Part shown: positions 2,929 through 59,228 of the stretch, in pieces | Numbering within the stretch: the first letter of the stretch is position 1 | Layout: each line of letters opens with the position of its first letter | Assembly: GCA_035449085.1 (NCBI GenBank) | Contig: DAOTKE010000001.1 | Coordinates: 1,232 to 65,231, forward strand | Length of the DNA stretch: 64,000 nucleotides | Reading direction: 5' to 3' | DNA from: Kiritimatiellia bacterium | GTDB taxonomy: Bacteria > Verrucomicrobiota > Kiritimatiellia > RFP12 > UBA1067 | Notes under the pieces: model-generated | What the model was told of the DNA's origin: nothing | Databases searched by the model: none | What the model saw: the letters and a program-made list of their open reading frames with translations, nothing else | Made by a program: the position numbers and the translations under genes

Positions 2929-3002
2929 TGGAGCGGGCGATGGGAATCGAACCCACGTAAGAAGCTTGGGAAGCTCCTATTCTGCCATTGAATTACGCCC
3001 GC
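2929..3002 (-). tRNA. tRNA-Gly (anticodon CCC)
   Basis: Reverse complement GCGGGCGTAATTCAATGGCAGAATAGGAGCTTCCCAAGCTTCTTACGTGGGTTCGATTCCCATCGCCCGCTCCA folds as a cloverleaf: 7-bp acceptor stem GCGGGCG/CGCCCGC, D-stem ATTC/GAAT, anticodon stem GGAGC/GCTTC with loop TTCCCAA (anticodon CCC), T-loop TTCGATT, encoded CCA. Confidence 0.85.
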
Positions 3003-3289: not shown

Positions 3290-3318
3290 TTGACCAAAGG
3301 TATGGGGCCGCGTATAAT
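3290..3318 (+). promoter_or_regulatory. Near-consensus sigma70 promoter (TTGACC-17 bp-TATAAT) for the giant surface-protein gene
   Basis: TTGACC at 3290-3295, 17-nt spacer, TATAAT at 3313-3318, in an AT-richer island ~140 nt upstream of ATG 3458. Confidence 0.5.
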
Positions 3319-3457
3319 GGGAGGCAAATGTTAGCGAGTGTTTGACCTAAGTGGATGGTCTGTTTTCCTGCGTAGAGTGACGAAGAGGGGCGGGCCGGGA
3401 AAAACGGCTCGCATCAACGGGATCATTCCCTCGTCTGAAAAGTGAAAGGTGCTTAAC

Positions 3458-4144
3458 ATGAGGAAGACGTTAGTTTTCGTGTGCGCGTGCATGGCGTGTT
3501 CTGCGGCGTTCGCAGATACGGTCGACCCGGAGTACCGGGTGCAGTGGCTGACCTCCGTGACGGAGGGTTATTACAATGCCGCCGAAAACTGGACGGGCGG
3601 AGAGGTGCCGGCAAACGGAATCGACGGGAAGTACGGCTACATCAACTTTCAGGCCAACGATGTGACGGTCAAAGCGCCCGCAGAGGGCCTCGTCGAGAAC
3701 TCGGGGTCGATCTTCCTTGGCACTGGCAGCGGTACGCATACGCTCACGCTTGATACGCGCGGCACCTACTGGGAGAAAACGGGCGTTCTACCAATGACTG
3801 GTGGGGGTCGCCGTTTGCCGCGAATCTCACGGGCGCGCATGTCTTTAACTTCGAGAGCCTTTCCAAGGAGGCGAACGCGGACCGCGTCTGGCGTTTCGAC
3901 GACGCGCTCTTCACATGGAAGTCGACGGGGACAACGAAACAGGAGTTCGACCTCTGGTGCGGGACACTTGATTTCGGCAAACCGCTTTACCTTGGGTCAA
4001 ATGGCGGCGCAGTCGACTTCACCATCCATCCGGAGGCGACGCTCAGCAGTACGGCCGCGTTCCAGCAGCGCGGTAATGCCGCCACGCACACCACGTTTCT
4101 GGGGGGGCACCACTCGCTCTATGGCATCTATCTCAAAGACTTGA
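3458..4144 (+). CDS. N-terminal fragment (signal peptide plus first ~105 aa) of a giant autotransporter-associated beta-strand-repeat (PATR) surface protein; frame is lost around 3772-3790
   Basis: ATG 3458 with RBS AAAGGTG. Signal peptide MRKTLVFVCACMACSAAFA. Translation is protein-like up to ...LDTRGTYWEKTG, then becomes Arg-rich nonsense. The continuing sense is in the frame of ORF 4141..7512, which is open from 3754. Confidence 0.55.
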   Translation: MRKTLVFVCACMACSAAFADTVDPEYRVQWLTSVTEGYYNAAENWTGGEVPANGIDGKYGYINFQANDVTVKAPAEGLVENSGSIFLGTGSGTHTLTLDTRGTYWEKTGVLPMTGGGRRLPRISRARMSLTSRAFPRRRTRTASGVSTTRSSHGSRRGQRNRSSTSGAGHLISANRFTLGQMAAQSTSPSIRRRRSAVRPRSSSAVMPPRTPRFWGGTTRSMASISKT

Positions 4145-7100
4145 ACGCCCACGACGGCCGCACCTGGATGCATATCACCAATGACGCGGTGGTTGTTTCG
4201 CGGAACGGGCTTTTTCTCGGACACCGCACCTATCAGAACAGCTTGGGACAGTCAGTCGGTCTATTGGATCTCACCTGTACCGCGCGCATGGAAGTCACGA
4301 ACAATGTGGTGCTCGGTGCGGGCCGCATGGGCGACACTTACGTCAATCTGTGCAACGAGGGCCGCATTGACATCCGCGACAACGCATCGTTCTATTCGCA
4401 CAATAACGTCAACTTCGGGAACACGCAATGCTCCACCGGCGTTGTGACGGTGGCTGGCCACGGCTCCTTCTCCGGCGCGGTCAATTTCTACATGGGGATG
4501 TCCTCGAACGCTGTGGGGCGTCTCGTGGTGCAGGACGATGCCTCAGTGTATTGCGGCGGTGTGCTCTACATGGGGAATGCGAAGCAGGCGCAGGGGTTTG
4601 TCATGCTCAAGGACCGCGCCACGCTTTCAATCAGTCCCGTCATCGGCAACTGGCTGTGTCTGGCGCCCAACCAACAGGACGCCCATGGCCGCTTTGAGGC
4701 GACGGACGACGCGGTGGTGACGCTCGGCAATGCGTCCTCGGTCGAGATGACGATGGGGGGCACCTCGCGCGCGGAACTCATCCTTTCGGGCAACGCGCAA
4801 TGGCTTGGCGGCACGGAAACAGCCGTCACGAACAAGAGCACGATCGTCGGGAACACGTCCGTCTCGCTTTCTTCCAACGCGCGTCTTTCCGTACGCGCCG
4901 TGTACGGCGGCTCGCCCGAGGATGGCTCGCCGGTGATGACGTTCACGGCGGACGGCGGCACGCTCACTTTTTCCGGCAATTCCATGCCGCCGGTTCCGTT
5001 CATGAGCGGGTGTGTGGCAAGGCTCGGCGCGAACGGCCTGACGGTCGATTCGAAGGGCTTTGCCATGACGTTCGATCAAGCGTTCACGGCGGTGGAAGGC
5101 GCCGCGTCCGCGACCTTCACGAAGACCGGTCATGGCACGCTCACGGTGACGCGTAACTCCTCGCACCCGCGGACCGTCCTCGCGCAGGGCGCGCTCGCAT
5201 TCGTGAATGCCGACTCGCGCTTCGGCAATGTGCTCGAAATCGCCGAAGGCGCGCGTCTTGTGCTCGCGGATCCCTCGGCGTCCATTGCGGCGGACGCGAT
5301 CACCTTTGAGGGTGACCTGCTGATCGACGTGCCGCCGGACTACACGCTCGATGCGATGCACGCAATCCTCGTGCTCGAGACGGCGCTTACAGCGGAGCAG
5401 TTGGCGAAAATTGCGGTGGGCAATCCGGCGAAAGGGCGGAACTATGCGTTCACCCTGAGCGAGGACGGGCGGACCGTGAGCGTGACGGTGACCGCGGCGA
5501 CCGCGGGTGCCTATACCTGGAGCGCCGGAACGGGGGCTTGGCATGTCTCCGACAACTGGACGCCGACGGGCGTGCCCACGCACAACGACGTGGCTACGGT
5601 GGCCTCGGGGGCCGAGATCGTGATGGACGCGGCGGGTATGGTGGGCTCGCTCGCCGTGGAGGGGACGGCCCCTGTGGCGGTCTCGGGCGATGAGACGCTT
5701 TACGTGGCGGAAAATATCTCCGTGGTTGCGGATGGTTCGCTCACGGTCTCCGCGCCGGTACGCAGCGCGTTGACGCTGGTGAAGGACGGCTCCGGCACGC
5801 TCACGTTGGCCGGCGCCAATCAGGCGACGATGTCCGGAGACTGGAGGCTCAACCGCGGCGTGACGGCGTTTGCCTCGGCTGCGGCGCTTGGCGCGGACTC
5901 TTCCAGCGACTCCGCGATCACGATCAGCAATTGCACGTTCCGCTACACGGGAGAGGCGGCGTCTATCCTGCGTCCGCTGCGCATCGCGGGCGACTACTGC
6001 GCGGTGCTGGACATCGTGGGCGACCTCACGTTCAACGGTGTGCAGGTCAACTATGACAACACGTCCGGCGGCGGCATCGTGAAGACGGGCGCGGGCACCC
6101 TGACGCTCAACGTGCCCGCAGGCACGACCTCCCTTTCCGTGCGCGGCGCGACGGGGCGCGGGAGCAATCAGGACGTGAGCGGTACGTTCGCGCCGTCGAA
6201 CGGCGAGGTCTCGAACTGGAATGGTTTGGGACAGTTCTCGGTCTTGGATGGCAAGGTGCTTATCCAGGGGAAAGGCAAGAGTGCCTCCACCGTGAGGCAG
6301 AAGCACCACGGTTCCGTTGGCGGTAGCGGCTGGAACACCACCGTGGCGCCGGAGCTTTACCTGAAGGATGTCACCTGCGAGATGGGTAGCGGCAGCGGGT
6401 TCCACACCCTCATGGACGTGCAGATCAAGCAGGGGAGCCCTGCCTCGAAGCTGATTCTTGACAACGCGAACCTCACGGCGAACGGCCTCTACGTCGGTCA
6501 CAGCAAACTGAGCGGCAACACCGACACGCCGAAACCGTTGCTCGCGATCACGAACAGTACACTGGACATCACTTGGCAGTTTACGGCGCCGAACAATAGC
6601 GGCATGGAGCCGGTGATTCGTATCGGCCCGGGGGGACTGTTGCGTCGCGCCAGCTCCACGGTGGCAGGCGGTGTGATGTTCAACCACAAGCTGGACGTGC
6701 GCGTGGAGGACGGCGGCGCGATCGAAGTGGCCTCGCCGCAGAACCTCTATCTGGGTAGTAGCGCTGCGGGCGATCTGGTTCTCGCAAACGGCGGGGGCAT
6801 GAAGGTGCACCGCTTCCTCGCGCGCAATGGCGGCACGACGGCGGCGGTCGCGTTCGATGGTGGCTATGCGCAGTTCACGCTGAACGGCGGCATCTCGACG
6901 GTGGTGAATCCCGCGACGACCTGTTTCCGCGCTGATGCGGGCGGTGGTGAACTTGTGGCCGCGGCGGGTGTTTCCCATGCCCTTGCGATTCCGCTACGTG
7001 GTACGGGCAGCTTCACAAAAACCGGGGCGGGCACACTCGTGTTCACAAATGACCTGAACGTTACAGTGGTGGACAATGTGCCTGTCTACTCGGAGTTGGA

Positions 7101-7512
7101 CTCGACGACGGTGAAGATCGCGAACGGTGGCGGTCTCAAGATCGCCGAGGGTACTGTGCGGTGTGTCGCGGGCACGACGGACGCCGCCAGCCGCTTTTCC
7201 GGCACGGGTACGCTCTCGGGCGCTTTCGGCACGCTCACACTCGATGTCGACGCAAACGCGACGAACGGCCTCACGTTCGCGGATCTCACGGCCGTGCAAG
7301 TGGTCGTCGACTTCGGGCGCACGGCCGCGAGCCCCGTTCCGGCAGGCGGCAGCGCGGTCGTCGCGAAGATCGGGGCAGGCACCTCGTTCACGGGTATGGG
7401 CTGGAAGGGTGTGAATCTCGGCTCCGACAGGGTGGCGGAGTTCCGGTGCGATGCGAATGGCGTCGTCACGGCGCATTTCCGCAGCACCGGCCTCGCGATG
7501 TATATCCGTTGA
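4141..7512 (+). CDS. Giant PATR (autotransporter-associated beta strand repeat) secreted protein, main body; continuation of 3458..4144 after an apparent frameshift
   Basis: 1123 aa. Repeated G-[ST]-G-T-L-T-L/V modules (TKTGHGTLTVT, VKDGSGTLTLAG, VKTGAGTLTLNV, TKTGAGTLVFTN). This frame is already open and protein-like from 3754 (STNDWWGSPFAANLTGAHVFNFES...) but has no start codon before the TTG at 4141. Confidence 0.7.
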   Translation: MNAHDGRTWMHITNDAVVVSRNGLFLGHRTYQNSLGQSVGLLDLTCTARMEVTNNVVLGAGRMGDTYVNLCNEGRIDIRDNASFYSHNNVNFGNTQCSTGVVTVAGHGSFSGAVNFYMGMSSNAVGRLVVQDDASVYCGGVLYMGNAKQAQGFVMLKDRATLSISPVIGNWLCLAPNQQDAHGRFEATDDAVVTLGNASSVEMTMGGTSRAELILSGNAQWLGGTETAVTNKSTIVGNTSVSLSSNARLSVRAVYGGSPEDGSPVMTFTADGGTLTFSGNSMPPVPFMSGCVARLGANGLTVDSKGFAMTFDQAFTAVEGAASATFTKTGHGTLTVTRNSSHPRTVLAQGALAFVNADSRFGNVLEIAEGARLVLADPSASIAADAITFEGDLLIDVPPDYTLDAMHAILVLETALTAEQLAKIAVGNPAKGRNYAFTLSEDGRTVSVTVTAATAGAYTWSAGTGAWHVSDNWTPTGVPTHNDVATVASGAEIVMDAAGMVGSLAVEGTAPVAVSGDETLYVAENISVVADGSLTVSAPVRSALTLVKDGSGTLTLAGANQATMSGDWRLNRGVTAFASAAALGADSSSDSAITISNCTFRYTGEAASILRPLRIAGDYCAVLDIVGDLTFNGVQVNYDNTSGGGIVKTGAGTLTLNVPAGTTSLSVRGATGRGSNQDVSGTFAPSNGEVSNWNGLGQFSVLDGKVLIQGKGKSASTVRQKHHGSVGGSGWNTTVAPELYLKDVTCEMGSGSGFHTLMDVQIKQGSPASKLILDNANLTANGLYVGHSKLSGNTDTPKPLLAITNSTLDITWQFTAPNNSGMEPVIRIGPGGLLRRASSTVAGGVMFNHKLDVRVEDGGAIEVASPQNLYLGSSAAGDLVLANGGGMKVHRFLARNGGTTAAVAFDGGYAQFTLNGGISTVVNPATTCFRADAGGGELVAAAGVSHALAIPLRGTGSFTKTGAGTLVFTNDLNVTVVDNVPVYSELDSTTVKIANGGGLKIAEGTVRCVAGTTDAASRFSGTGTLSGAFGTLTLDVDANATNGLTFADLTAVQVVVDFGRTAASPVPAGGSAVVAKIGAGTSFTGMGWKGVNLGSDRVAEFRCDANGVVTAHFRSTGLAMYIR

Positions 7513-7913: not shown

Positions 7914-8393
7914 ATGTCTTTTGCGGGTGGACAGAGTGTGGCGGCGGCCGCCGGACCGGGATTACTGGTCGGGCGGTTTGACCACGCTTTGGACCCCAAG
8001 AAGCGGTTGACCGTGCCCTCGGGCTGGCGCGACCTGATGGGGTCACCGGCCTACGTGTATGTGTTTCCCGACCCGAATGAGCGGTGTCTGAACCTGATCC
8101 CTCCGGCAGAGATGGAGGGGCGGCTGGAGAAGTTGCGGCAGCGGTCGCTCTTCGACAAGCGCGCGGGCGAGGCGCTGAGGGTGTTCGGCGAGAATGCCGA
8201 GCAGGCGGTGCTGGACGTGCAGGGGCGGATCCGTATCCGGGATCGGCTGCTCGCCTTTGCCGGGCTGAGCAGCAAGGTGGTGATGATCGGCGCGATGAAC
8301 CGTGTCCAGATCTGGTCGCCTGAATTGCGGCCGGAATCGGAGACGGTGGATCAGGCGGCATTGGCCGCCGCGTGCGAGACCCTGGAGTTCTAG
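7914..8393 (+). CDS. mraZ: Transcriptional regulator MraZ
   Basis: GRFDHALDPKKRLTVPSGWRDLMG matches the MraZ N-terminal DxxxR/KGR repeat; a second repeat VQGRIRIRDRLL follows. ~150 aa. First gene of the dcw cluster. Start taken at ATG 7914; the ORF is open from TTG 7869. Confidence 0.7.
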   Translation: MSFAGGQSVAAAAGPGLLVGRFDHALDPKKRLTVPSGWRDLMGSPAYVYVFPDPNERCLNLIPPAEMEGRLEKLRQRSLFDKRAGEALRVFGENAEQAVLDVQGRIRIRDRLLAFAGLSSKVVMIGAMNRVQIWSPELRPESETVDQAALAAACETLEF

Positions 8394-8537
8394 CGGCGTC
8401 CGGCGGATGCCGGCGTGTGTTGACAAGTGATTTGGATCGCGGGCATGGCGTACCCGTCCGGAGGACGGACGCGTGTTCCAGGCGGGGCCGTTCTGCCGCG
8501 CGATCATTGTTTGGAATGGATTCAGTCTGGAGGGACG

Positions 8538-9488
8538 ATGCACCTGCCGGTGTTGCTGCAGGAGACGATGGACGCCCTGGCGGTGGTTCCCGGCGGCAGC
8601 TACATCGACGGAACACTCGGCGGTGCGGGCCACGCGGCGGAGATCCTGAGACGCGCGGGACCGGCCGGACGGTTGCTGGGGATCGACAAGGACGTGTCGG
8701 CCCTGGAGCGTTCGGCGGCGCGGCTGTCGGTGTTGTCTGGCGAGAAGGTGTTGGCGCACGGGGCTCATGGCGAGCTGCGGCGCCTGGCCGAGGCGAACGG
8801 GTTTGCGGCAGTGGACGGCGTGCTGTTGGACCTGGGCGTGTCATCCGATCAGCTCGACACGCCCGGGCGGGGGTTCAGCTTCCGGTTTGACGGACCCCTG
8901 GACATGCGCATGGATACGACTCGGGGGGAGTCGGCGGCCGACCTGCTGGCAAGGCTGGACGTGCAGTCCCTTGCAGACGTTTTTTGGAGGCTCGGCGAGG
9001 AGTCGCGCGCGCGGCGCATCGCGCAGGCGATCGTACACGCGCAGCGTCAGTCGCCGATCATGACGACCGGTCGGCTGGCGCAGGTGGTGGCGGATGCCGT
9101 GGGCGGACGCAGCGGGCCGCGGCATCCGGCGACGCGCGTGTTTCAGGCGTTGCGCATGGCGGTGAACCGGGAGCTGGAGGATTTGGAACAGGCGCTGGAG
9201 GACGGGTTGCAGCTCCTCAAGCCGGGCGGACGCATGGCGGTGATCACGTTTGAGAGCATCACCGACCGCCTGGTCAAGCAGCGGTTTGCGGCGCATGCGG
9301 GGCGTTGGGTCTCCCTGCAGCAGGGCGGCGAGCGCTGGGAAGGCGAGGAGCCGGCTGTGACGCGGGTGACGCGACACCCGGTGGAGGCGGGGCCCGAAGA
9401 GTTGGCGGCCAATCCCCGGGCGCGCTCGGCGAAATTGAGGGTCGTGCAGCGTTGCGAGACGCCGGTGCGCGGCGGAACGAAAGTGTGA
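8538..9488 (+). CDS. rsmH: 16S rRNA (cytosine1402-N4)-methyltransferase RsmH (MraW)
   Basis: MHLPVLLQETMDAL..GGSYIDGTLGGAGHA is the hallmark RsmH N-terminus. Lies downstream of mraZ. ATG 8538 with RBS GGAGGGACG. Confidence 0.9.
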   Translation: MHLPVLLQETMDALAVVPGGSYIDGTLGGAGHAAEILRRAGPAGRLLGIDKDVSALERSAARLSVLSGEKVLAHGAHGELRRLAEANGFAAVDGVLLDLGVSSDQLDTPGRGFSFRFDGPLDMRMDTTRGESAADLLARLDVQSLADVFWRLGEESRARRIAQAIVHAQRQSPIMTTGRLAQVVADAVGGRSGPRHPATRVFQALRMAVNRELEDLEQALEDGLQLLKPGGRMAVITFESITDRLVKQRFAAHAGRWVSLQQGGERWEGEEPAVTRVTRHPVEAGPEELAANPRARSAKLRVVQRCETPVRGGTKV

Positions 9489-48646: not shown

Positions 48647-51600
48647 ATGATTTTGGGAAGACTCCTTATGATCAATAAGCTGTTTTTGGGCGACTCCCGT
48701 GAGGGTGCTTTTTTCCGTCGGGTGGATTGGACGGCCTTCTGGACCGCAACGCTGATTTCGTTTTTGGTTTACTTCTTTACGTTGGGGCCGTCGGTGACGC
48801 TGGAGGACTCCGGCGAGCTGGCGGTTGCGGGCGATCATCTGGGTGTGCCGCATCCGCCCGGCTATCCGATCTGGACGATGTGTGCCTTTGTGTTTGCGCG
48901 CCTCTTCAGTTGGGTGACCTATCAGGGGCAGCCGACGCCAGCGTGGAGCATCTCGCTGATGTCGGCGTTCTTTGCCGCGCTGGCGGCCGGCTTCACGGCG
49001 ATGTTGATCACGCGTTCGGCAACCGACATGCTGCGTGACGCGCATGACGGTGAGGAGGATTTCGATCCGGCTCAGAGCAATGTGCTGTGCTGGGTGGGCG
49101 GCGTCGGCGGCAGTCTGGTCTTTGCCTTCAGCCCGGTCATGTGGTCGCAGGCCACGATCGTGGAGGTGTACACGCTGAACGCCTTCTTCCTGATGTGGAT
49201 CTTCCTGTTGACCTATCGCTGGATGCGGCGTCCATCTGACAAAATTTTGTGGTTGACCGCCTTTGTTTTCGGGCTTGGCCTCACCAACTATCAGGTGCTG
49301 TTGCTGGCGGCGCTGCCGCTGGTGGTCATGATCTTCCTGCGTGACCTCGCCCTGTTCCGCGATTTCCTCATGGTCGGCATTCCGATCTTGCTGAGTGCGC
49401 ATGTGTTGCAGATAGGCGCGATGATGCCCGCTCAGCCCGGCATGGCGGGGCCCGCCTACGCGAAGGTGACGCCAGGCGCGTTGAATGCGGTAATGGTGCC
49501 CTCTCTGTCGCTGCTGGTGGCGGGCGCGGTGTGTGTGTTCTTGGGATTGATCGCGGCGCTGTTCCTGAAGGGCTGCGCGACCGGCGGAGCAACGAAAGGG
49601 CGTTTCGCGTTTCTCAAGAGTGTGGCGCCGCAAGGCGGCGCGATCGGCGCGGGTCTGACGGCCTTCGGCGCGTTACTGGTCTTCTTCTCGATGGGGGCGG
49701 CGAAGACCGGCGTGAAGGCGGCGACCGACCTGCCGCTGTTTGAGTCCTCGGTCTACACCAGTGTGGCGGGGCTGATCCTGTTGGTGCTCGCGCTCTGCAT
49801 CGGTGGCGCGTATGCGTACCGTGACCGGCTCAACGATAAGGCGGTGCTGGCCTGGTTGATCCCGGCGTGCGCGATGCTGCTGATCCTCTTTTTCAGGCTT
49901 TCCGCCATCAAAGGCACTGTGTTGCCACCAGGCTACATGGGACAGCCATTTGATTGGGCGCTGCCGTCGGTTGCGCTGATGGGTGGGCTGGCGGTGCTCT
50001 TTCTGCTGGGGGCGACCGTGCCGCGGGGCCTCTTCTACGCGATTCCCGTGGCGGCGGTGCAGATCTCCGTGTTTGTGCTGTTGCGCAAGGGCGGCATGAA
50101 CGGTCTGACGCACCCGACCTCCTGGTGGTTCTGGTGGGGCGCACTCTGGAATTTCGTCATCATCGGGCTGGCGTGGCTGACCCTGCCGCACGGGCGCAGC
50201 GTCGCGCTGACCACGCTCTGCGCCGAGTTGGGCGTGTCGTTCTACATTTACATGCCGATTGTCTCGGACCTGCGCAATCCGCCCATGAACTGGGGCTACC
50301 CGCGCACGTGGGAAGGGTTCAAGCACGCCATCACGCGCGGCCAGTATGAGAAGCTGGCGCCCTCCGATGTTTTCACCAAGAAGTTCCTCTTCCAGCTCGG
50401 CACCTACTTTACCGACCTGCGCGTGCAGTTCACCCTGATCGCGGCCACGCTGGGCTTCATCCCCTTCACGCTCTGGAGCTTCAAAATCGGCGGACGACGT
50501 ATCCGCGCCTTGTATGTGGCGAGTGCGTTCTATCTGCTGACCTGTGTGGTGGTGCTGCTTTCCGAAGTTATGGGCGGCGAGCCGGTGTTGCGTCTCGACA
50601 AACTCTTTATCGCGGCCATCCTGCTACTGTTACTGGTCGGCACCACTACGATCATGTTCCGCCAGATCGAAGAGTTCGCGCGCCGTACTTGGCGGGCGCA
50701 CAATCTTTCGGAGGGGCTGACAGCCGGCATCACGCTGGCGGGCATAGCGGCGGGCGTCGGACTTTTCGTGGCCAAAGGCATCCTCAGCATGATGAGCGGG
50801 CCGGGCATTGTGCCGGGTATCGGCGCCAAGGTCGGTGCGCTGGCTTTGGCGCTGGTTATCCTGGCGGCGGTCGGCACCGGCTGGTTCTTTTTCCGCCGGT
50901 GGGCCGAACGGCAGGTCGACTTCCGCTCGGACATGGATATGGTCACACAGCAGTGGCTCATCTCCACGACAGCCGGTTTCTTGGTCATGAGCGTGTTGCT
51001 CGTGGTGCTCGCCAACATCAAGGGCGACCTGCAGGACATGTTCATCCAGAAAGTGAAGTTCATCAGCTCGCACGGCCTCTTTGCGATCTGGATCGGTTAC
51101 GGCCTCGTTTTCGGTCTGTCGGTCGGCAACCGCCTGCTGAAGACTTTGGTCAAGCGCGGTACGTTGCCTGCGGCTTTGCTGAAGCCGTTGCGCACCGGCA
51201 TGCTGTGCGCGGGACTGTTGGTCGCGGCCATCCCGATCTACGAGAACTACACCAACGAGTATCTGGTCTTTTCGATGAGCGGCGCGGAACAGAACGGCCA
51301 CGATTTCGGCTGGCAGTTCGGCAATTACCAGTTGCGCGGCGCGGACGCGATCACGGAGGAGCTGGATGCCGACGAGGAGCCGCTGCCCAACCCGCTCTAC
51401 CCGCCAGAAATGGAGCCCAACGCCATCTTTTTCGGCGGCACGGATCCCGGGCGCTTTGTGCCCACCTACATGATCTACTCGGCGCGGGTGCGGCCCGACG
51501 TTTTCCTGATCACGCAGAACGCGCTGGCCGACAACACCTACATGAACACCATGCGCGACCTGTACGGCAATCCTATCTGGATTCCGACGCCGGACGACAG

Positions 51601-52813
51601 CGCGCGCGCCTTTCAGATTTATGTCGATGAGGTGCAGGCAGGCAAGCGCCCCAAGAACGCCGATCTGACGATCGAGAACGGCCGCGTGCAGGTGAGCGGT
51701 GCGCTGGGCGTGATGGAGATCAACGGCATCCTGTGCGACATGATCTTCCAGAAGAACAAGGCGCGTCACGCTTTCTATATCGAAGAGAGCTACGTCATCA
51801 ACTGGATGTTCCCGTATCTCACGCCGCACGGGCTGATCATGAAGATCAACTCCGAGCGGACGCCGATCGAGCGTACGAACATGCAGGACGATATGATGTT
51901 CTGGGATTGGTACACGCGCCACCTGCTGCGCTCTCCGATGTTCCGGCGCGACCTGCCGGCCCAGAAGTCGTTCTCCAAGTTGCGCAGCGCGATCGCCGGT
52001 CTTTATGCGGCACGCGGCATGCTGGTCGAAAGCGAGCGGGCGTTCCAGGAGGCGCGGACGCTCTATCCGGTCAGCCCGGAGGCCAATTTCCGCCTGGTCC
52101 AAGAGGTGTTGCTGCGCCAGGCGCGCTACGACGAGGCGATCGACATTCTCGATGAGTACAACCGGCGCGACCCGAACAACGGGCGCGGCTTCGATTTCGT
52201 CTCGTTCATTCGCCGCGTGCGCGCGACCGAGGCCAAAGTGCGCGACCTGACCGCCAAAGCGCAGGCCAACAAGCAGCTCTCACCGGAAGACGCCTTTGAA
52301 CTGGCCATGGCCTACCGCGAGCTGGGGCAAAACGAACCGGCCGCTTCCTATCTCAACCAACTGGCGGTCCTGCCCAATCTCCCGGTCGAGCGGCTGCTCG
52401 AAATCGGCGCGTTGCTCGGCAGCCTCAAGAAGCATGAAGATGCTGCCAAGGTGATGGATAACGTGATGGCGCGCCTGCCGGCCAACCTCCCGCCTGAACA
52501 GCTCATGGAGATCGTGCGGGTGTACGGCGATGCTGGCCAGCCGGACAAGATGATCGTACCGCTTTCGCGTTATCTGCAGATCCGCCCGAATGATTGGAAC
52601 GCATGGATCGACATGGCGACACTCAGCGCGTTGCGCCAGCAGCAGCAACAGATGCAATACGCGTTGCGTAAGGCGCTGGAACTGGGCAAAGGGCAGGCGA
52701 TGCAGCGGATTCAGGAGAACGGTGTGCTGCGTCAGGTTGCAGGGCCGATTTTGCAGCAGATGATGCAGCAGGGGCCGGTCGGGCTGCCGGGCCTGGGGCC
52801 GCGAGGGCAGTGA
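48647..52813 (+). CDS. DUF2723 (TMEM260-like GT-C glycosyltransferase fold) membrane protein with C-terminal TPR repeats
   Basis: 1388 aa, more than 20 TM helices. DSGELAVAGDHLGVPHPPGYP is the DUF2723 hallmark. C-terminal 400 aa are TPR-like. Confidence 0.7.
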   Translation: MILGRLLMINKLFLGDSREGAFFRRVDWTAFWTATLISFLVYFFTLGPSVTLEDSGELAVAGDHLGVPHPPGYPIWTMCAFVFARLFSWVTYQGQPTPAWSISLMSAFFAALAAGFTAMLITRSATDMLRDAHDGEEDFDPAQSNVLCWVGGVGGSLVFAFSPVMWSQATIVEVYTLNAFFLMWIFLLTYRWMRRPSDKILWLTAFVFGLGLTNYQVLLLAALPLVVMIFLRDLALFRDFLMVGIPILLSAHVLQIGAMMPAQPGMAGPAYAKVTPGALNAVMVPSLSLLVAGAVCVFLGLIAALFLKGCATGGATKGRFAFLKSVAPQGGAIGAGLTAFGALLVFFSMGAAKTGVKAATDLPLFESSVYTSVAGLILLVLALCIGGAYAYRDRLNDKAVLAWLIPACAMLLILFFRLSAIKGTVLPPGYMGQPFDWALPSVALMGGLAVLFLLGATVPRGLFYAIPVAAVQISVFVLLRKGGMNGLTHPTSWWFWWGALWNFVIIGLAWLTLPHGRSVALTTLCAELGVSFYIYMPIVSDLRNPPMNWGYPRTWEGFKHAITRGQYEKLAPSDVFTKKFLFQLGTYFTDLRVQFTLIAATLGFIPFTLWSFKIGGRRIRALYVASAFYLLTCVVVLLSEVMGGEPVLRLDKLFIAAILLLLLVGTTTIMFRQIEEFARRTWRAHNLSEGLTAGITLAGIAAGVGLFVAKGILSMMSGPGIVPGIGAKVGALALALVILAAVGTGWFFFRRWAERQVDFRSDMDMVTQQWLISTTAGFLVMSVLLVVLANIKGDLQDMFIQKVKFISSHGLFAIWIGYGLVFGLSVGNRLLKTLVKRGTLPAALLKPLRTGMLCAGLLVAAIPIYENYTNEYLVFSMSGAEQNGHDFGWQFGNYQLRGADAITEELDADEEPLPNPLYPPEMEPNAIFFGGTDPGRFVPTYMIYSARVRPDVFLITQNALADNTYMNTMRDLYGNPIWIPTPDDSARAFQIYVDEVQAGKRPKNADLTIENGRVQVSGALGVMEINGILCDMIFQKNKARHAFYIEESYVINWMFPYLTPHGLIMKINSERTPIERTNMQDDMMFWDWYTRHLLRSPMFRRDLPAQKSFSKLRSAIAGLYAARGMLVESERAFQEARTLYPVSPEANFRLVQEVLLRQARYDEAIDILDEYNRRDPNNGRGFDFVSFIRRVRATEAKVRDLTAKAQANKQLSPEDAFELAMAYRELGQNEPAASYLNQLAVLPNLPVERLLEIGALLGSLKKHEDAAKVMDNVMARLPANLPPEQLMEIVRVYGDAGQPDKMIVPLSRYLQIRPNDWNAWIDMATLSALRQQQQQMQYALRKALELGKGQAMQRIQENGVLRQVAGPILQQMMQQGPVGLPGLGPRGQ

Positions 52814-56010: not shown

Positions 56011-56445
56011 ATGAAATCTATAGTTGCGCCAATCGCTGTTCTGGGAACTGTTGCTGTTCTGGCTGATCCTGTAGGCGGGGCCGGCGAGTGGGAGTTCACC
56101 GGTGAAGCCCCCGACCAGCAGCTTACAGTGTTGTCCGGCGAGTGTACGATCGATGAAGCCATTGATGGCTGCAGCCAGGTGTACATCCTGGAAGGTGCGA
56201 AACTGACGCTGAATGTCGACGAACCATTTATCTCCCAGCCGGAACTGCACAACTTCGGCACCTTGGAGTTGAACGGATACTCCATTTCGGTCAGGAGGTT
56301 CGACAACACGATCGAGAGTAGCGCCATCCGGGGGAAGTTGCCGATGGTGGTCAATTCCTCCGAGGAACCTGTTTCCTTGCGGGTGACGGGCGGGGCAAGC
56401 TCTTGCTATTATACGGATCCATTCGCGAGAACCCTGGCAGGATAG
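56011..56445 (+). CDS. N-terminal fragment (signal peptide plus ~110 aa) of giant PATR/discoidin surface protein 3; frame lost between 56322 and 56445
   Basis: ATG 56011 with RBS GGAAGG. Signal peptide MKSIVAPIAVLGTVAVLA. PATR-like strands. Reading frame of 56403..59228 is open from 56322. Confidence 0.55.
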   Translation: MKSIVAPIAVLGTVAVLADPVGGAGEWEFTGEAPDQQLTVLSGECTIDEAIDGCSQVYILEGAKLTLNVDEPFISQPELHNFGTLELNGYSISVRRFDNTIESSAIRGKLPMVVNSSEEPVSLRVTGGASSCYYTDPFARTLAG

Positions 56446-59228
56446 ACGTCGATTGTAAGCCCAGCCTGCGTCTGGTGGGGCCTGAAGGTTCATGCGCGGT
56501 TTCGTCGGTGACCAACGGAACCAGCGGGCAAATGCTCGCGCATTCGCGTCCTACGAACATAAGATTCGCGTTTCAGCCTCCCTCTGACCCAAGCTTGACA
56601 CTGCGTGTTGCGGAAATTACCCTGACGTACAAGGGAGTGCCCATCCCGCATCAGGGTGACGTGGGTGTGTCCTCCTCCTATGGTTCCAATAATGGCGCCA
56701 AAGTGATAGATGGGCGCGCCGATACCTTCTGGCAGGCTGCCGATACTGGGGTTCAGGCAGCGACCCTATACGAGTTGAATTTTTATCCTGTGGATGGTTA
56801 CAGAATCACGCCGACCAAGGTGGCCGACGGTCAGGATTTCAACCCAACGGGATGGGACGTCTATGTCTATCGTGCGCAGGAAGTCGGCTGGGTGAGGGTG
56901 GACTCGCAGCGCGATGTGGTCTGGCCAAGGGCGACGGTTGAAGGTAAAGATTCCCACGCCACAACCAATTTCTTCTTCTCTCGGGAACTGATGCCGGGGA
57001 GTGTGTTCGGCCCGGAAACAGATTTGGCGGTTCTCGGTACCGGGGCGCAATCTTTGCGTGTGACGACGGCCGAACCGTTGGTCGTAGGCCATCTCACGGC
57101 CAAAGGGAGCGTATCGCTTGAAAATGGCAGTACGCTTTCCGTGAAGTCTCTGAAGGATTTTAGCGGCCAGTTTGTGACAACTGCGGATGCGGGGTATCTC
57201 AAGCAGGCGAAGGTCGCGATCCGTGCCGAAGGGGGCGAGGAACAGGCCGTGCCGGTCACAGCCATCGCCACTAACCTCGCGGTCGTCAATGGCGGCACGG
57301 CGCCGGTCTCGCTGCTCCTGAACGATGGGGACCGCCAGTTCGGCCGTCTCGCAGACGGCGATTTCGGGGGCAAGCTCGGTGTCGTGAAACGCGGCTCGGG
57401 GACGTCGTGTCTGGCAACGGAAGACGCCGGCTACACGGGGCCGACGCGCGTCGAGGAAGGTACGCTCATGGTCGTTGGCGGGGGCTTGTCGGTCGGCACC
57501 GTCACGGCCAAGTACATACGGGTACGCCCGTTGGCGACTTATGGCACTTTGACGAGAGGGAGTGATTTTGTCGATCAGTACGGATTCAACTGGGCGATCG
57601 GCTATTTCCAGCTTTTGGATGAGGGCGGGAACCAGGTGAACATCTCTGCCGCCAGTGTGAGCGCGCCTTATGGGTTTATTAATAACGACAGTATAGCTGC
57701 CATGTGCGGTGATACAACCAAACGGTGCCTCATTAAAAACGGGGGAGATGTTGCGTCTGCTTTGCATCCCGTGACCATCTACTTGAGCACGGGGATCACC
57801 TTTGCCGGATATCTGTGGTGCCCGGATCTGAATAGCCCCAGCGCGGTGGAGACGCGCAACCCGGTGGAACTGGAGATCGCGGTTTCCGATGACAATGAGA
57901 ATTGGACGGTGGTCGACGTGTCATACTTCCCGCACTCCGGCGGCGATTGGCATACGGTCGAAAAATCGATCGTTCGTGGCCCCGCTGCGCTTTCGGGCTT
58001 GCGTCCCGCACGGGCTGGCTCCATTCTCAAAACGCTTCCTCAGTCGCTTCTGGCCGATCCGCCCAATCCCCGCCAGACGTTTGCCAAGCTGAAGTCAAAG
58101 ATCTTCCAGTTCGAAGTCTTTGAGACGAACAACCCGGAAGCGAGCGAAGATAGCTATGGATGGCACATTGCGGAGCTGTCGCTATACAGGGATGGCCAGA
58201 GAATGGAGTGGCCGGCGGGAACGACTATTACCTGCGCCGGCGCGACGGTGAATGTGAACAACAATTCAAGGCTGACGAACATCTGCAACAATGTGGTCTG
58301 GGAACCCAGTGAGGGTGGGGACACAACAATGCGTGAGGGGTGCTTCGTTCAGGGCTATCCCAGCTATGTGACCATCACCACGCCGGAGGAGATCGCGTTC
58401 GACGCCTATTCGTTCCATTCGTCGGCCAATACAGTATTTTGCAGGGCCCGTATCCCCAGTTGCTGGCGTCTGCGGATCAGGAGCTCTCCGTCTGCCGACT
58501 GGTACATTGCCGATGCGCATACGGATTTCCGTGAAGGCAAGGAATATCCTGTCATCACCAAAGCCTATCAGGAAATCGGCCCGTTCTATGTCGGGGATAA
58601 ATTCCCGCTACTGGACATGGGGGCCTGCAATGTGTTGGGCGACGAGTCTCCGGTCACCATCGCCGCTGGTGCGACTTTGAAGATTGCCTCCGCTTATGAA
58701 AAGATGGGGCCGATCTCGGGTGCCGGAACGCTCGTGCTGGATTGGGCTACGACCGCCGAGATCAATGCCTGCGCTCCCGCGACTTTCTCGGGAAAGGTCG
58801 AGCACTACGGCAGGAAGGGCACCTTGGCCGTGACGGGGGCCGCTGTCCAAACCTTTGACAATGTCGACCTCTCGGGTGTGGCGACGCTCGAGCTGAATGG
58901 CGGTGCGCTCGTGGGGACGGCTTCCGCCGGTGGCGACCTCGCCGTACAGTTCAATGGCGGCGCGTATAACGGCACGATAACGGTGCCTGGTGCGCTGTCG
59001 GTGACTGGCACGATGAAGATTGCCGTACCGGAGAATGTGGTGAGTGGATATCGCCGCACGCTCTTCACTTACGAGTCGATAGACGATGCTTCGAAGGAAA
59101 TCCTGCGGTCGGCATCAGCCGATAATCCCGAATCGCTTCCCCAAGGCTTCAGGATGCTTGTGACGGCCAAAGAGACCGAATGCACCGTCTCCATCGCCGC
59201 TCTGGGCACGCTCGTCATCTTCCGCTAG
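56403..59228 (+). CDS. Giant surface protein 3 main body: F5/8 type C (discoidin) domains plus PATR beta-strand repeats; lacks its own signal peptide
   Basis: 941 aa. Discoidin-like segments (..NPVELEIAVSDDNENWTVVD.., ..GWHIAELSLYRDGQRMEW..). PATR modules (VKRGSGTSCLATEDAGYTGPTRVEEGTLMV.., ISGAGTLVLDW..). Confidence 0.7.
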   Translation: MLLYGSIRENPGRIDVDCKPSLRLVGPEGSCAVSSVTNGTSGQMLAHSRPTNIRFAFQPPSDPSLTLRVAEITLTYKGVPIPHQGDVGVSSSYGSNNGAKVIDGRADTFWQAADTGVQAATLYELNFYPVDGYRITPTKVADGQDFNPTGWDVYVYRAQEVGWVRVDSQRDVVWPRATVEGKDSHATTNFFFSRELMPGSVFGPETDLAVLGTGAQSLRVTTAEPLVVGHLTAKGSVSLENGSTLSVKSLKDFSGQFVTTADAGYLKQAKVAIRAEGGEEQAVPVTAIATNLAVVNGGTAPVSLLLNDGDRQFGRLADGDFGGKLGVVKRGSGTSCLATEDAGYTGPTRVEEGTLMVVGGGLSVGTVTAKYIRVRPLATYGTLTRGSDFVDQYGFNWAIGYFQLLDEGGNQVNISAASVSAPYGFINNDSIAAMCGDTTKRCLIKNGGDVASALHPVTIYLSTGITFAGYLWCPDLNSPSAVETRNPVELEIAVSDDNENWTVVDVSYFPHSGGDWHTVEKSIVRGPAALSGLRPARAGSILKTLPQSLLADPPNPRQTFAKLKSKIFQFEVFETNNPEASEDSYGWHIAELSLYRDGQRMEWPAGTTITCAGATVNVNNNSRLTNICNNVVWEPSEGGDTTMREGCFVQGYPSYVTITTPEEIAFDAYSFHSSANTVFCRARIPSCWRLRIRSSPSADWYIADAHTDFREGKEYPVITKAYQEIGPFYVGDKFPLLDMGACNVLGDESPVTIAAGATLKIASAYEKMGPISGAGTLVLDWATTAEINACAPATFSGKVEHYGRKGTLAVTGAAVQTFDNVDLSGVATLELNGGALVGTASAGGDLAVQFNGGAYNGTITVPGALSVTGTMKIAVPENVVSGYRRTLFTYESIDDASKEILRSASADNPESLPQGFRMLVTAKETECTVSIAALGTLVIFR

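Follow-up and report, generated by a model that had tools for sequence, protein, structure and literature searches.

A secreted beta-helical surface-protein gene of a Kiritimatiellia strain, very probably inactivated by a recent 4-nt deletion

In frameshift pseudogenes of bacterial surface and adhesin genes, a small out-of-frame deletion is found in a gene that is otherwise intact, the orthologues of sister lineages are intact, and annotation pipelines mistake what remains for a shorter protein. Phase-variable contingency loci (Neisseria opa and pilC; the tetranucleotide-repeat genes of Haemophilus) also feature a surface gene that is turned OFF by a frameshift in its early coding region. In such loci, the switch resides in a homopolymer or tandem repeat, and ON and OFF length variants are seen within populations. 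Among the proteins, the PATR or “autotransporter-associated beta strand repeat” proteins (PF12951, TIGR02601) of the PVC superphylum are large and secreted, carry repeats of the G-x-G-T-L-x-L type, and are predicted to form a long right-handed beta-helix. The passengers of type Va autotransporters (Ag43, Hbp, EspP, pertactin, TibA) and the TpsA domain of two-partner secretion (HxuA) are long, three-faced right-handed beta-helices that follow an N-terminal Sec signal.

The locus described here was found in a stretch of 64,000 nt (the window) from an uncultured Kiritimatiellia strain. It shares the listed traits of the frameshift pseudogenes and differs from them in nothing of principle; its own particulars are the host and the fixation of the allele in all available samples. 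In all likelihood, positions 3458-7512 of the window hold the gene for a secreted beta-helical surface protein (ca. 1,352 aa) that was inactivated by a 4-nt deletion and is now a recent frameshift pseudogene. The features that are referred to below are as follows:

3290..3318, plus strand: sigma-70-like promoter, TTGACC-17 nt-TATAAT, matching the consensus at 11 of 12 positions (0.5 such sites would be expected in shuffled sequence)
3444..3449, plus strand: ribosome-binding site GAAAGG, 8 nt before ATG 3458
3458..3514, plus strand: putative signal peptide MRKTLVFVCACMACSAAFA, cleavage predicted before DTVDP, as judged from the sequence
3458..3786, plus strand: 5' part of the ancestral CDS in its original frame (codons 1-109 plus the GT of codon 110)
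3786..3787, plus strand: deletion junction; 4 nt missing (third base of a Val/Leu codon and a Lys/Arg-type codon)
3787..4144, plus strand: out-of-frame tail of the truncated product, 119 nonsense codons, rich in Arg, Ser and Pro, ending in TGA 4142-4144
3787..7512, plus strand: residual 1,241 codons of the ancestral CDS, now in the -1 frame; open, with neither a signal peptide nor a ribosome-binding site of its own
4101..4107, plus strand: G7 run, in which G_GGG_GGC at 4102 is the only X_XXY_YYZ heptamer in the overlap of both frames

Translation in frame 1 from ATG 3458 gives MRKTLVFVCACMACSAAFA, then DTVDP...LTLDTRGTYWEKTG, after which only Arg/Ser/Pro-rich nonsense is read up to the TGA. 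Frame 3 is open from 3754, reads ...STNDWWGSPFAANLTGAHVFNFESL... and stops at 7510-7512; its earliest start codons are TTG 4141 and ATG 4168. When the two translations were joined across 3784, the stitched protein aligned with more than 60 homologues of 1,313-1,374 aa over 98-100% of the length, and the ORFs beginning at 3458 and 4141 are therefore the halves of one gene. Its ancestral length was 1,352 codons, with the deletion near codon 110. The 5' part is 76-80% identical to the N-termini of seven of these homologues (P0002-P0008). No similarity to the homologues was found in the out-of-frame tail; over the same stretch, they match the other frame. The frameshift that the first-pass annotation had placed near 3772-3790 is real and was correctly positioned.

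The near-consensus promoter that had been noted in front of the gene was recovered at 3290-3318. A TTGAC-17-TATAAT arrangement also lies upstream of one orthologue (L018); the upstream regions of the other orthologues could not be aligned. The sole well-conserved upstream block in six aligned orthologues, GAAAG(G/A)GG followed by ATGA(A/G)(A/G)AA, supports ATG 3458 rather than GTG 3449 as the predicted start. In the putative signal peptide, a basic N-terminus precedes a hydrophobic core, and AFA stands before the D; complete homologues have an equivalent hydrophobic stretch at the N-terminus that leads into A-D-T/P. Homologues without a signal peptide, starting near 4141, had been contemplated earlier; the complete homologues begin with a signal peptide.

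The missing bases were located by alignment to orthologues, as had been proposed in the first-pass annotation. At the junction, the window reads GGCGT/TCTACC, compared to GGCGT-AAAG-TCGATC in orthologue L009 and GGTGT-GAAG-GCTATC in L011. The extra tetranucleotide, of the N+AAG/AGR type, is present in 13 of 13 homologous DNAs (these two and 11 more). L009 and L011 are syntenic with the window in that mraZ-rsmH also comes next after the gene. In all 63 full-length homologues examined (1,313-1,374 aa, all bearing a signal peptide), exactly 8 residues separate W-x-K from WW; this interval occupies 20 nt in the window versus 24 in the homologues. The reading frame is disrupted relative to the intact orthologues, i.e. 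the 13 DNAs and 63 proteins. A scan of GTDB genomes yielded 17 related loci, the window's own species not being among them, and the 16 that cover the lesion site are all open across it. The deletion is flanked by an A4 run (3776-3779) and a G5 run (3803-3807), to which the switch of frame had previously been assigned. Homopolymer slippage at either run was rejected because the gap falls between them, in neither, and both align ungapped with the orthologues.

Nineteen contigs encode exactly the 228-aa frameshift product, and 23 encode the strain's MraZ. Fifteen contig stretches were fetched, and all 15 were 100% identical to the window. About a dozen accessions, of samples or assemblies, are represented among them, and the contig names follow at least two assembler styles (NODE_..., k141_...) in addition to Logan and JGI. 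The lesion-spanning stretches L001-L008 are from ENA (ERZ795052, ERZ795047, ERZ27257469), JGI (3300010347) and Logan (SRR5007117, SRR5007134, SRR5007140, SRR5007457); L031 (JGI 3300009667) also includes the lesion site. Because the identical broken allele recurs in about a dozen accessions and with several assemblers, it is not an assembly error. The contigs, with 0 differences over as much as 12.5 kb, represent one clone; they vouch for the accuracy of the sequence, yet count as a single evolutionary observation. The source is a metagenome-assembled genome, which lends something to the notion that the gene is intact in the organism and the missing bases are artefactual. Given the recurrence of the sequence among samples, runs and assemblers, and given a 4-nt loss in repeat-free sequence that is not a homopolymer miscount, this notion is improbable in the extreme. 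The homopolymer sequencing error that had been suggested is likewise untenable, as the lesion is outside the homopolymers and the allele was independently sequenced and assembled in many samples.

No intact allele of the strain was found among about 15 billion public proteins, and the next-best match to the stitched protein is just 80% identical. The 90% cluster of the 3' remnant comprises only proteins of 1,114, 1,123 and 278 aa, with no intact member. Nor was an intact allele present on the 19-23 contigs of the strain, which are consensus assemblies in which minority alleles would be invisible. When the contig index was queried for exact copies of the remnants (1,114 aa and 1,123 aa), there was no match; the 228-aa product and MraZ did give matches. 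A scan of metagenome_contigs with a junction pattern allowing 0-9 nt returned 0 matches. The pattern does match the window, so the strain is absent from that collection and the scan is uninformative on intact alleles. Regarding the earlier suggestion that an intact gene be sought elsewhere, intact orthologues were thus obtained, but no intact allele of this strain.

These results bear on whether the gene could be a phase-variable contingency locus, i.e. one in which reversible slippage toggles an adhesin-like protein, with this genome in the OFF state. The surface protein is fast-evolving (80% identity to orthologues whose MraZ is 95.6% identical), a strong promoter stands in front of it, and such genes are typical targets of switching. 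However, no homopolymer, tandem or simple repeat was detected at the deletion site by TRF and a regular-expression scan, and the orthologues carry no repeat tract at that position. Of the runs nearby, the longest (A4, G5) are as long as their reading frames would predict, and the loss of 4 nt from unique sequence is not easily undone. Unlike the described contingency loci, this one has neither a repeat nor ON/OFF length variants (19 contigs, 90% cluster), and no ON allele was encountered on the 19-23 contigs or in that cluster. The slippage-based switch raised in the first-pass annotation is therefore not upheld, and phase variation is judged highly improbable.

A full-length protein might still be made by recoding, through programmed -1 ribosomal frameshifting or transcriptional slippage. 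The shift needed is indeed -1, and the -1 frame is open from 3754, which gives a 390-nt overlap that contains the G_GGG_GGC heptamer. This heptamer is 315 nt downstream of the lesion; it was dismissed as a recoding site because a shift there would leave ca. 105 conserved residues of the N-terminal beta-helix as nonsense and would not restore the protein. There is no slippery X_XXY_YYZ heptamer at the frame junction and none placed to spare the conserved residues. No unusual stimulatory RNA structure was found at the site, nor a stable one downstream (fold z-score +0.34). All complete orthologues are single-frame, and the two-frame layout is not conserved. Recoding is thus scarcely credible. 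With repeats, slippery heptamers and unusual RNA structure all absent from the site, phase variation and programmed frameshifting are both unsupported.

The intact protein is predicted to be a long right-handed beta-helix resembling autotransporter passengers. In AlphaFold models, the 5' part forms the first turns of the helix, residues 110-227 form confident turns (pLDDT 88), and the translation of 4141-7509 forms a continuous beta-helix (pLDDT 91.8). The top fold matches of both modelled parts were autotransporter passengers, the type Va and TpsA proteins named above being the best; these matches are weak (E of 2e-3 or worse, TM of 0.33 or lower for the top ones). Searching the PDB sequences with a profile of the N-terminal part yielded nothing meaningful. 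As in type Va autotransporters, a signal-peptide-like N-terminus precedes the modelled beta-helix. In contrast to them, no C-terminal beta-barrel translocator (PF03797) was detected in the stitched protein or five homologues, even at E up to 1. The C-terminus is modelled as ordinary beta-strands (from the secondary-structure string only), and the family has its own C-terminal tail, S/T-G-(5 hydrophobic)-R/K. The locus also differs from two-partner secretion in that a TPS motif was not identified. With the PATR proteins, the gene product has in common its large size, its predicted secretion, the G-x-G-T-L-x-L repeat type and the predicted beta-helix. The PATR identity given in the first-pass annotation is nevertheless borderline. 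One repeat only was found in the stitched protein, and it passes TIGR02601 (20.6 versus a cut-off of 19.85) but falls short of Pfam PF12951 (24.4 bits versus a cut-off of 27); known PATR proteins differ from it in this respect, although NCBI names the remnant as one of them. Among family members, PATR scores range from no match to 27.2 bits, several scoring nothing, and no curated family was matched over most of the 1,350 aa. The family is uncharacterised and occurs in Kiritimatiellia and related bacteria.

It may also be asked whether the two products are used separately, i.e. a secreted N-terminal protein of 228 aa and/or a C-terminal protein of 1,114-1,123 aa. The downstream ORF is intact, and both ORFs are called as genes by public pipelines, the 3' part being annotated only as 4168-7512 (1,114 aa) or 4141-7512 (1,123 aa). 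The TGA at 4142-4144 overlaps TTG 4141 (TTGA), an arrangement that could couple translation and allow a cytoplasmic fragment of 1,123 aa to be made by some re-initiation. Against such a split, over half the residues of the 228-aa product are out-of-frame nonsense, and no Shine-Dalgarno-like sequence was found upstream of 4141 or 4168. The downstream product lacks a signal peptide and 227 conserved residues of a continuous beta-helix. Residues 110-227 include many invariant positions, which, together with the confident model turns in this region, suggests that the missing part matters. The only homologue that starts there is P0023, itself another damaged copy. Separate use of the two products is accordingly considered very unlikely.

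Under the preferred reading of a frameshift pseudogene, translation from ATG 3458 would yield the signal peptide and 109-110 native residues. After the deletion, the frame would shift, and 119 nonsense residues would follow before termination at 4144. The downstream 1,241 codons, with no signal peptide or recognisable translation start, would not give rise to an exported full-length protein, and the deletion would have become fixed in the single clonal strain sampled. That the 3' part has no signal peptide and that recoding signals are absent both point to a loss of function.

The deletion is probably recent, because no secondary lesions have accumulated in the remainder of the gene and dN/dS is not raised. 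No additional stops occur in the 1,241 downstream codons, and dN/dS was 0.22-0.24 for the window against the orthologues, compared to 0.35 between the two orthologues. The recent pseudogene that the first-pass annotation had listed among its options is therefore the one retained: a 4-nt out-of-frame deletion relative to every orthologue, with an open downstream frame and no elevation of dN/dS. An open frame with a low dN/dS is what a very recent deletion would leave; it is no less what would be expected if the downstream part were still in use. It is accordingly conceivable, if unlikely, that the gene is not simply dead. Loss of the surface beta-helix may have been selected (e.g. because it let cells evade a phage or predator for which the helix serves as receptor) and have swept the digester population, or the 1,123-aa remnant may be translated via TTGA in a new role that does not involve export. 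The fixation of the allele in every sample, the lack of secondary lesions and the low dN/dS are compatible with either. No compensating paralogue was found within the window, its other PATR-like protein (56403-59228) not being significantly similar.

A search of the literature on the sample accessions and on Kiritimatiellia pseudogenes in digesters returned nothing useful. No new mechanism is implied, this being an ordinary frameshift pseudogene of a kind already known. The main value of the finding concerns annotation. In the public records HRR32524.1 and HRU69441.1, the 3' remnant is listed as a 1,114-aa [quoted passage not shown]; this remnant and the largely nonsensical 228-aa ORF should become one pseudogene. 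At least one, and possibly two, members of the family have been independently damaged elsewhere, which fits the frequent loss that is usual in families of surface proteins. The strain would thus be without one member of a conserved, uncharacterised family of beta-helix surface proteins of ca. 1,350 aa.

Translation of both frames of the secreted beta-helix surface-protein gene (3458-7512) agreed with the first-pass annotation, whose coordinates and description of the frames are therefore correct. Read from ATG 3458, frame 1 opens with a typical signal peptide (MRKTLVFVCACMACSAAFA/D) and is protein-like until ...LTLDTRGTYWEKTG; Arg/Ser/Pro-rich nonsense follows to the stop. The downstream frame translates as ...STNDWWGSPFAANLTGAHVFNFESL... 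once open, and its earliest possible starts are TTG 4141 and ATG 4168. A GAAAGG ribosome-binding site, conserved among the orthologues, precedes ATG 3458. The features concerned are as follows:

3290-3318, + strand: promoter-like site, TTGACC-17-TATAAT, 11/12 matches
3458..4144, + strand: frame 1 ORF, ATG at 3458, stop TGA at 4142-4144
3754 to stop 7510-7512, + strand: open part of the downstream frame (begins 3460), closed before by TGA 3751-3753
between 3786 and 3787, + strand: deletion gap, from nucleotide alignment against the homologous DNAs L009 and L011

For homology searching, frame 1 (3458-3784) and frame 3 (3784-7509) were stitched into a single query, which was compared with 5.8 billion protein clusters. 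The top match was the 3' remnant itself (P0001; 1,114 aa, 100% identity, 82% coverage), named by NCBI as a Kiritimatiellia MAG protein. More than 60 further homologues of 1,313-1,374 aa covered 98-100% of the query at 50-80% identity; the complete ones have a signal-peptide-like segment at the N-terminus and continue uninterrupted through the junction. The two closest homologues with DNA, L009 (P0003) and L011 (P0002), are syntenic with the window: in all three, mraZ, rsmH and the cell-division/cell-wall (dcw) cluster come after the gene. These comparisons indicate that 3458-7512 is one gene, not two.

The lesion was located by nucleotide alignment at the junction, where the window reads GGCGT----TCTACC, L009 reads GGCGTAAAGTCGATC and L011 reads GGTGTGAAGGCTATC. 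The W-x-K to WW spacing is exactly 8 residues in 63/63 full-length homologues, i.e. 24 nt, versus 20 nt in the window. The four additional bases, which are present in all 13 homologous DNAs (contigs and GTDB genomes), comprise the third base of a Val/Leu codon plus one codon, Lys/Arg in most of them; the 16 GTDB loci covering the site are all open across it. It follows that the ancestral gene was 1,352 codons long and that 4 nt of codons 110-111 are now missing. The runs suspected in the first pass, A4 (3776-3779) and G5 (3803-3807), both align without gaps; the lesion lies between them in unique sequence, with no tandem or simple-sequence repeat at the site. In the AlphaFold model, it falls in the loop following strand 104-108, in the first helix turns, and the exported product loses everything past it (>90% of the protein).

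A sequencing error would account for the broken frame, but the same 4-nt loss was seen by different libraries and assemblers, and this explanation is accordingly rejected, within the limits of consensus sequences. Nineteen public contigs encode the frameshift product (228 aa) exactly, and 23 carry the MraZ of the strain. None of the 15 stretches fetched differed from the window (100% identity, alignments of up to 12.5 kb); their sources were ENA (ERZ795052, ERZ795047, ERZ27257469), JGI (3300010347, 3300009667, 3300009704, 3300009714, 3300025629) and Logan assemblies (SRR5007117, SRR5007134, SRR5007140, SRR5007457). Nine of the 15, namely L001-L008 and L031, cover the site of the deletion. The sampled contigs show one clone only, and are therefore sequence replicates, not independent evolutionary events.

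Slippage-based phase variation, also proposed in the first pass, is rejected to the same extent, given neither a repeat tract nor an intact allele. No repeat tract was present at the site in the window genome or the orthologues, and no intact allele occurred among the strain's contigs or in the remnant's 90%-identity cluster, whose members are only 1,114, 1,123 and 278 aa; beyond the remnant, the stitched protein has no relative closer than 80% identity. As for recoding, the sole X_XXY_YYZ heptamer in the 390-nt two-frame overlap is G_GGG_GGC at 4102, within a G7 run (4101-4107) and 315 nt 3' of the lesion. Frameshifting there would replace a conserved segment having many invariant positions with ca. 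105 nonsense residues. RNA 3' of the lesion was not more stably folded than shuffled sequence (z = +0.34). All orthologues use a single frame, and the two-frame arrangement is thus not conserved. The evidence supports neither a switch nor a recoding site. The G7 run sits 35 nt ahead of a TTGA (4141-4144) in which the truncated-frame stop overlaps the downstream-frame TTG; both features are probably coincidental, and they are the only ones that could permit residual expression of the remnant.

No other stop interrupts the 1,241 codons 3' of the deletion. With the missing 4 nt restored as N, dN/dS (NG86) was 0.22-0.24 between the window and the two orthologues and 0.35 between the orthologues, and no segment stood out. 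The open frame and unraised dN/dS mark the deletion as young relative to the orthologue divergence (dS ~0.5). The main residual uncertainty is that these ratios fit both a “very recent pseudogene” and a gene “still used”, which they cannot separate.

Curated libraries recognized almost nothing in the intact protein: one PATR repeat (24.4 bits in Pfam, cut-off 27; 20.6 bits in TIGR02601, cut-off 19.85) and a sub-threshold G8 match. Other family members ranged from no PATR hit up to 27.2 bits, and those examined had no autotransporter barrel domain; placing the intact protein among the classical autotransporters is not supported. AlphaFold models were built on family alignments for stitched residues 1-420 (pLDDT 88, pTM 0.88) and the 1,123-aa remnant (pLDDT 91.8), and both have regular three-strand right-handed beta-helix periodicity over nearly their full length. 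Foldseek matches in the PDB were all weak (E 2e-3 or worse) and fell consistently on the HxuA two-partner-secretion domain, tapirins, tailspikes, polysaccharide lyases and the autotransporter passengers Ag43, Hbp, EspC, EspP, IgA1 protease, TibA and pertactin. As far as fold class goes, the models and these matches support describing it as a “secreted beta-helical, adhesin-like surface protein”. The C-terminal tail (window 7486-7509) comprises S/T-G, five hydrophobic residues and a terminal R/K (e.g. STGLAMYIR, SGGTMLILR, SGFLLIIK). It occurs in 65 of 66 homologues (P0001-P0066; terminal R in 59, K in 6), i.e. all with a complete C-terminus; P0064 is cut by its contig end. Model confidence is low for the last five residues. 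The tail, which matched no curated family, has the look of a C-terminal signal for sorting or anchoring that is specific to this family.

A second family member, P0023, is independently damaged in two NCBI assemblies (GCA_965339875.1, GCA_965340275.1; DNAs L012 and L013). Its N-terminal 180 codons, with the signal peptide, are in one frame and the remainder (called as 1,149 aa) in another; the gene has a different genomic context, not adjoining mraZ.

L012 ~3514-4001 and L013 ~2300-2789: out-of-frame deletion of ca. 45 codons in P0023, after ...FGKDLY
L028 (RUG572, a rumen Lentisphaerae MAG) ~3625-3631: frame break and 12-residue gap near the C-terminus

Given the damage in P0023 and L028, sporadic decay seems common in this fast-evolving family. 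In L017 (1,582 aa) and L026 (1,992 aa), the ORF extends beyond the usual tail; for these anomalies and that of L028, additional lesions, fusions and assembly errors are all possible explanations. Three loci with the Kiritimatiellia-type gene bear the GTDB titles “uncultured Akkermansia sp.” (L015), “Clostridiales bacterium CCNA10” (L023) and “Azospirillum sp. 51_20” (L029) and are probably mislabelled or contaminated bins. The surface protein is 80% identical to its orthologues, versus 95.6% for MraZ and 90-91% for RsmH (window 7914-9488 against L009 and L011), and thus evolves much faster than its neighbours. The upstream region differs wholly, with an AP_endonuc_2-family gene in the window, RHS-repeat genes in L009, and SASA and amidohydrolase genes in L011, so that synteny stops just upstream of the gene. 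Four Logan contigs begin inside a nearby tRNA gene, at window 2954 or 2973. Other features of the neighbourhood were:

2929-3002, - strand: tRNA-Gly(CCC), ca. 290 nt upstream of the promoter
48647-52813, + strand: protein of 1,388 aa combining TPR repeats with a TMEM260-like protein O-mannosyltransferase domain (E 7e-33)
56403-59228, + strand: large protein showing no sequence relationship to the 3458-7512 gene; PATR repeat (below threshold) and F5/8 type C match (weak)

The remaining first-pass proposal, a recent pseudogene, is supported by the 4-nt gap against all orthologues, the open downstream frame and the unraised dN/dS. On this evidence, 3458-7512 is best described as an ordinary, recent frameshift pseudogene arising from a 4-nt deletion, for which the one strain sampled is fixed. 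In public annotation, the pseudogene wrongly appears as a 228-aa ORF and a 1,114-1,123-aa protein.
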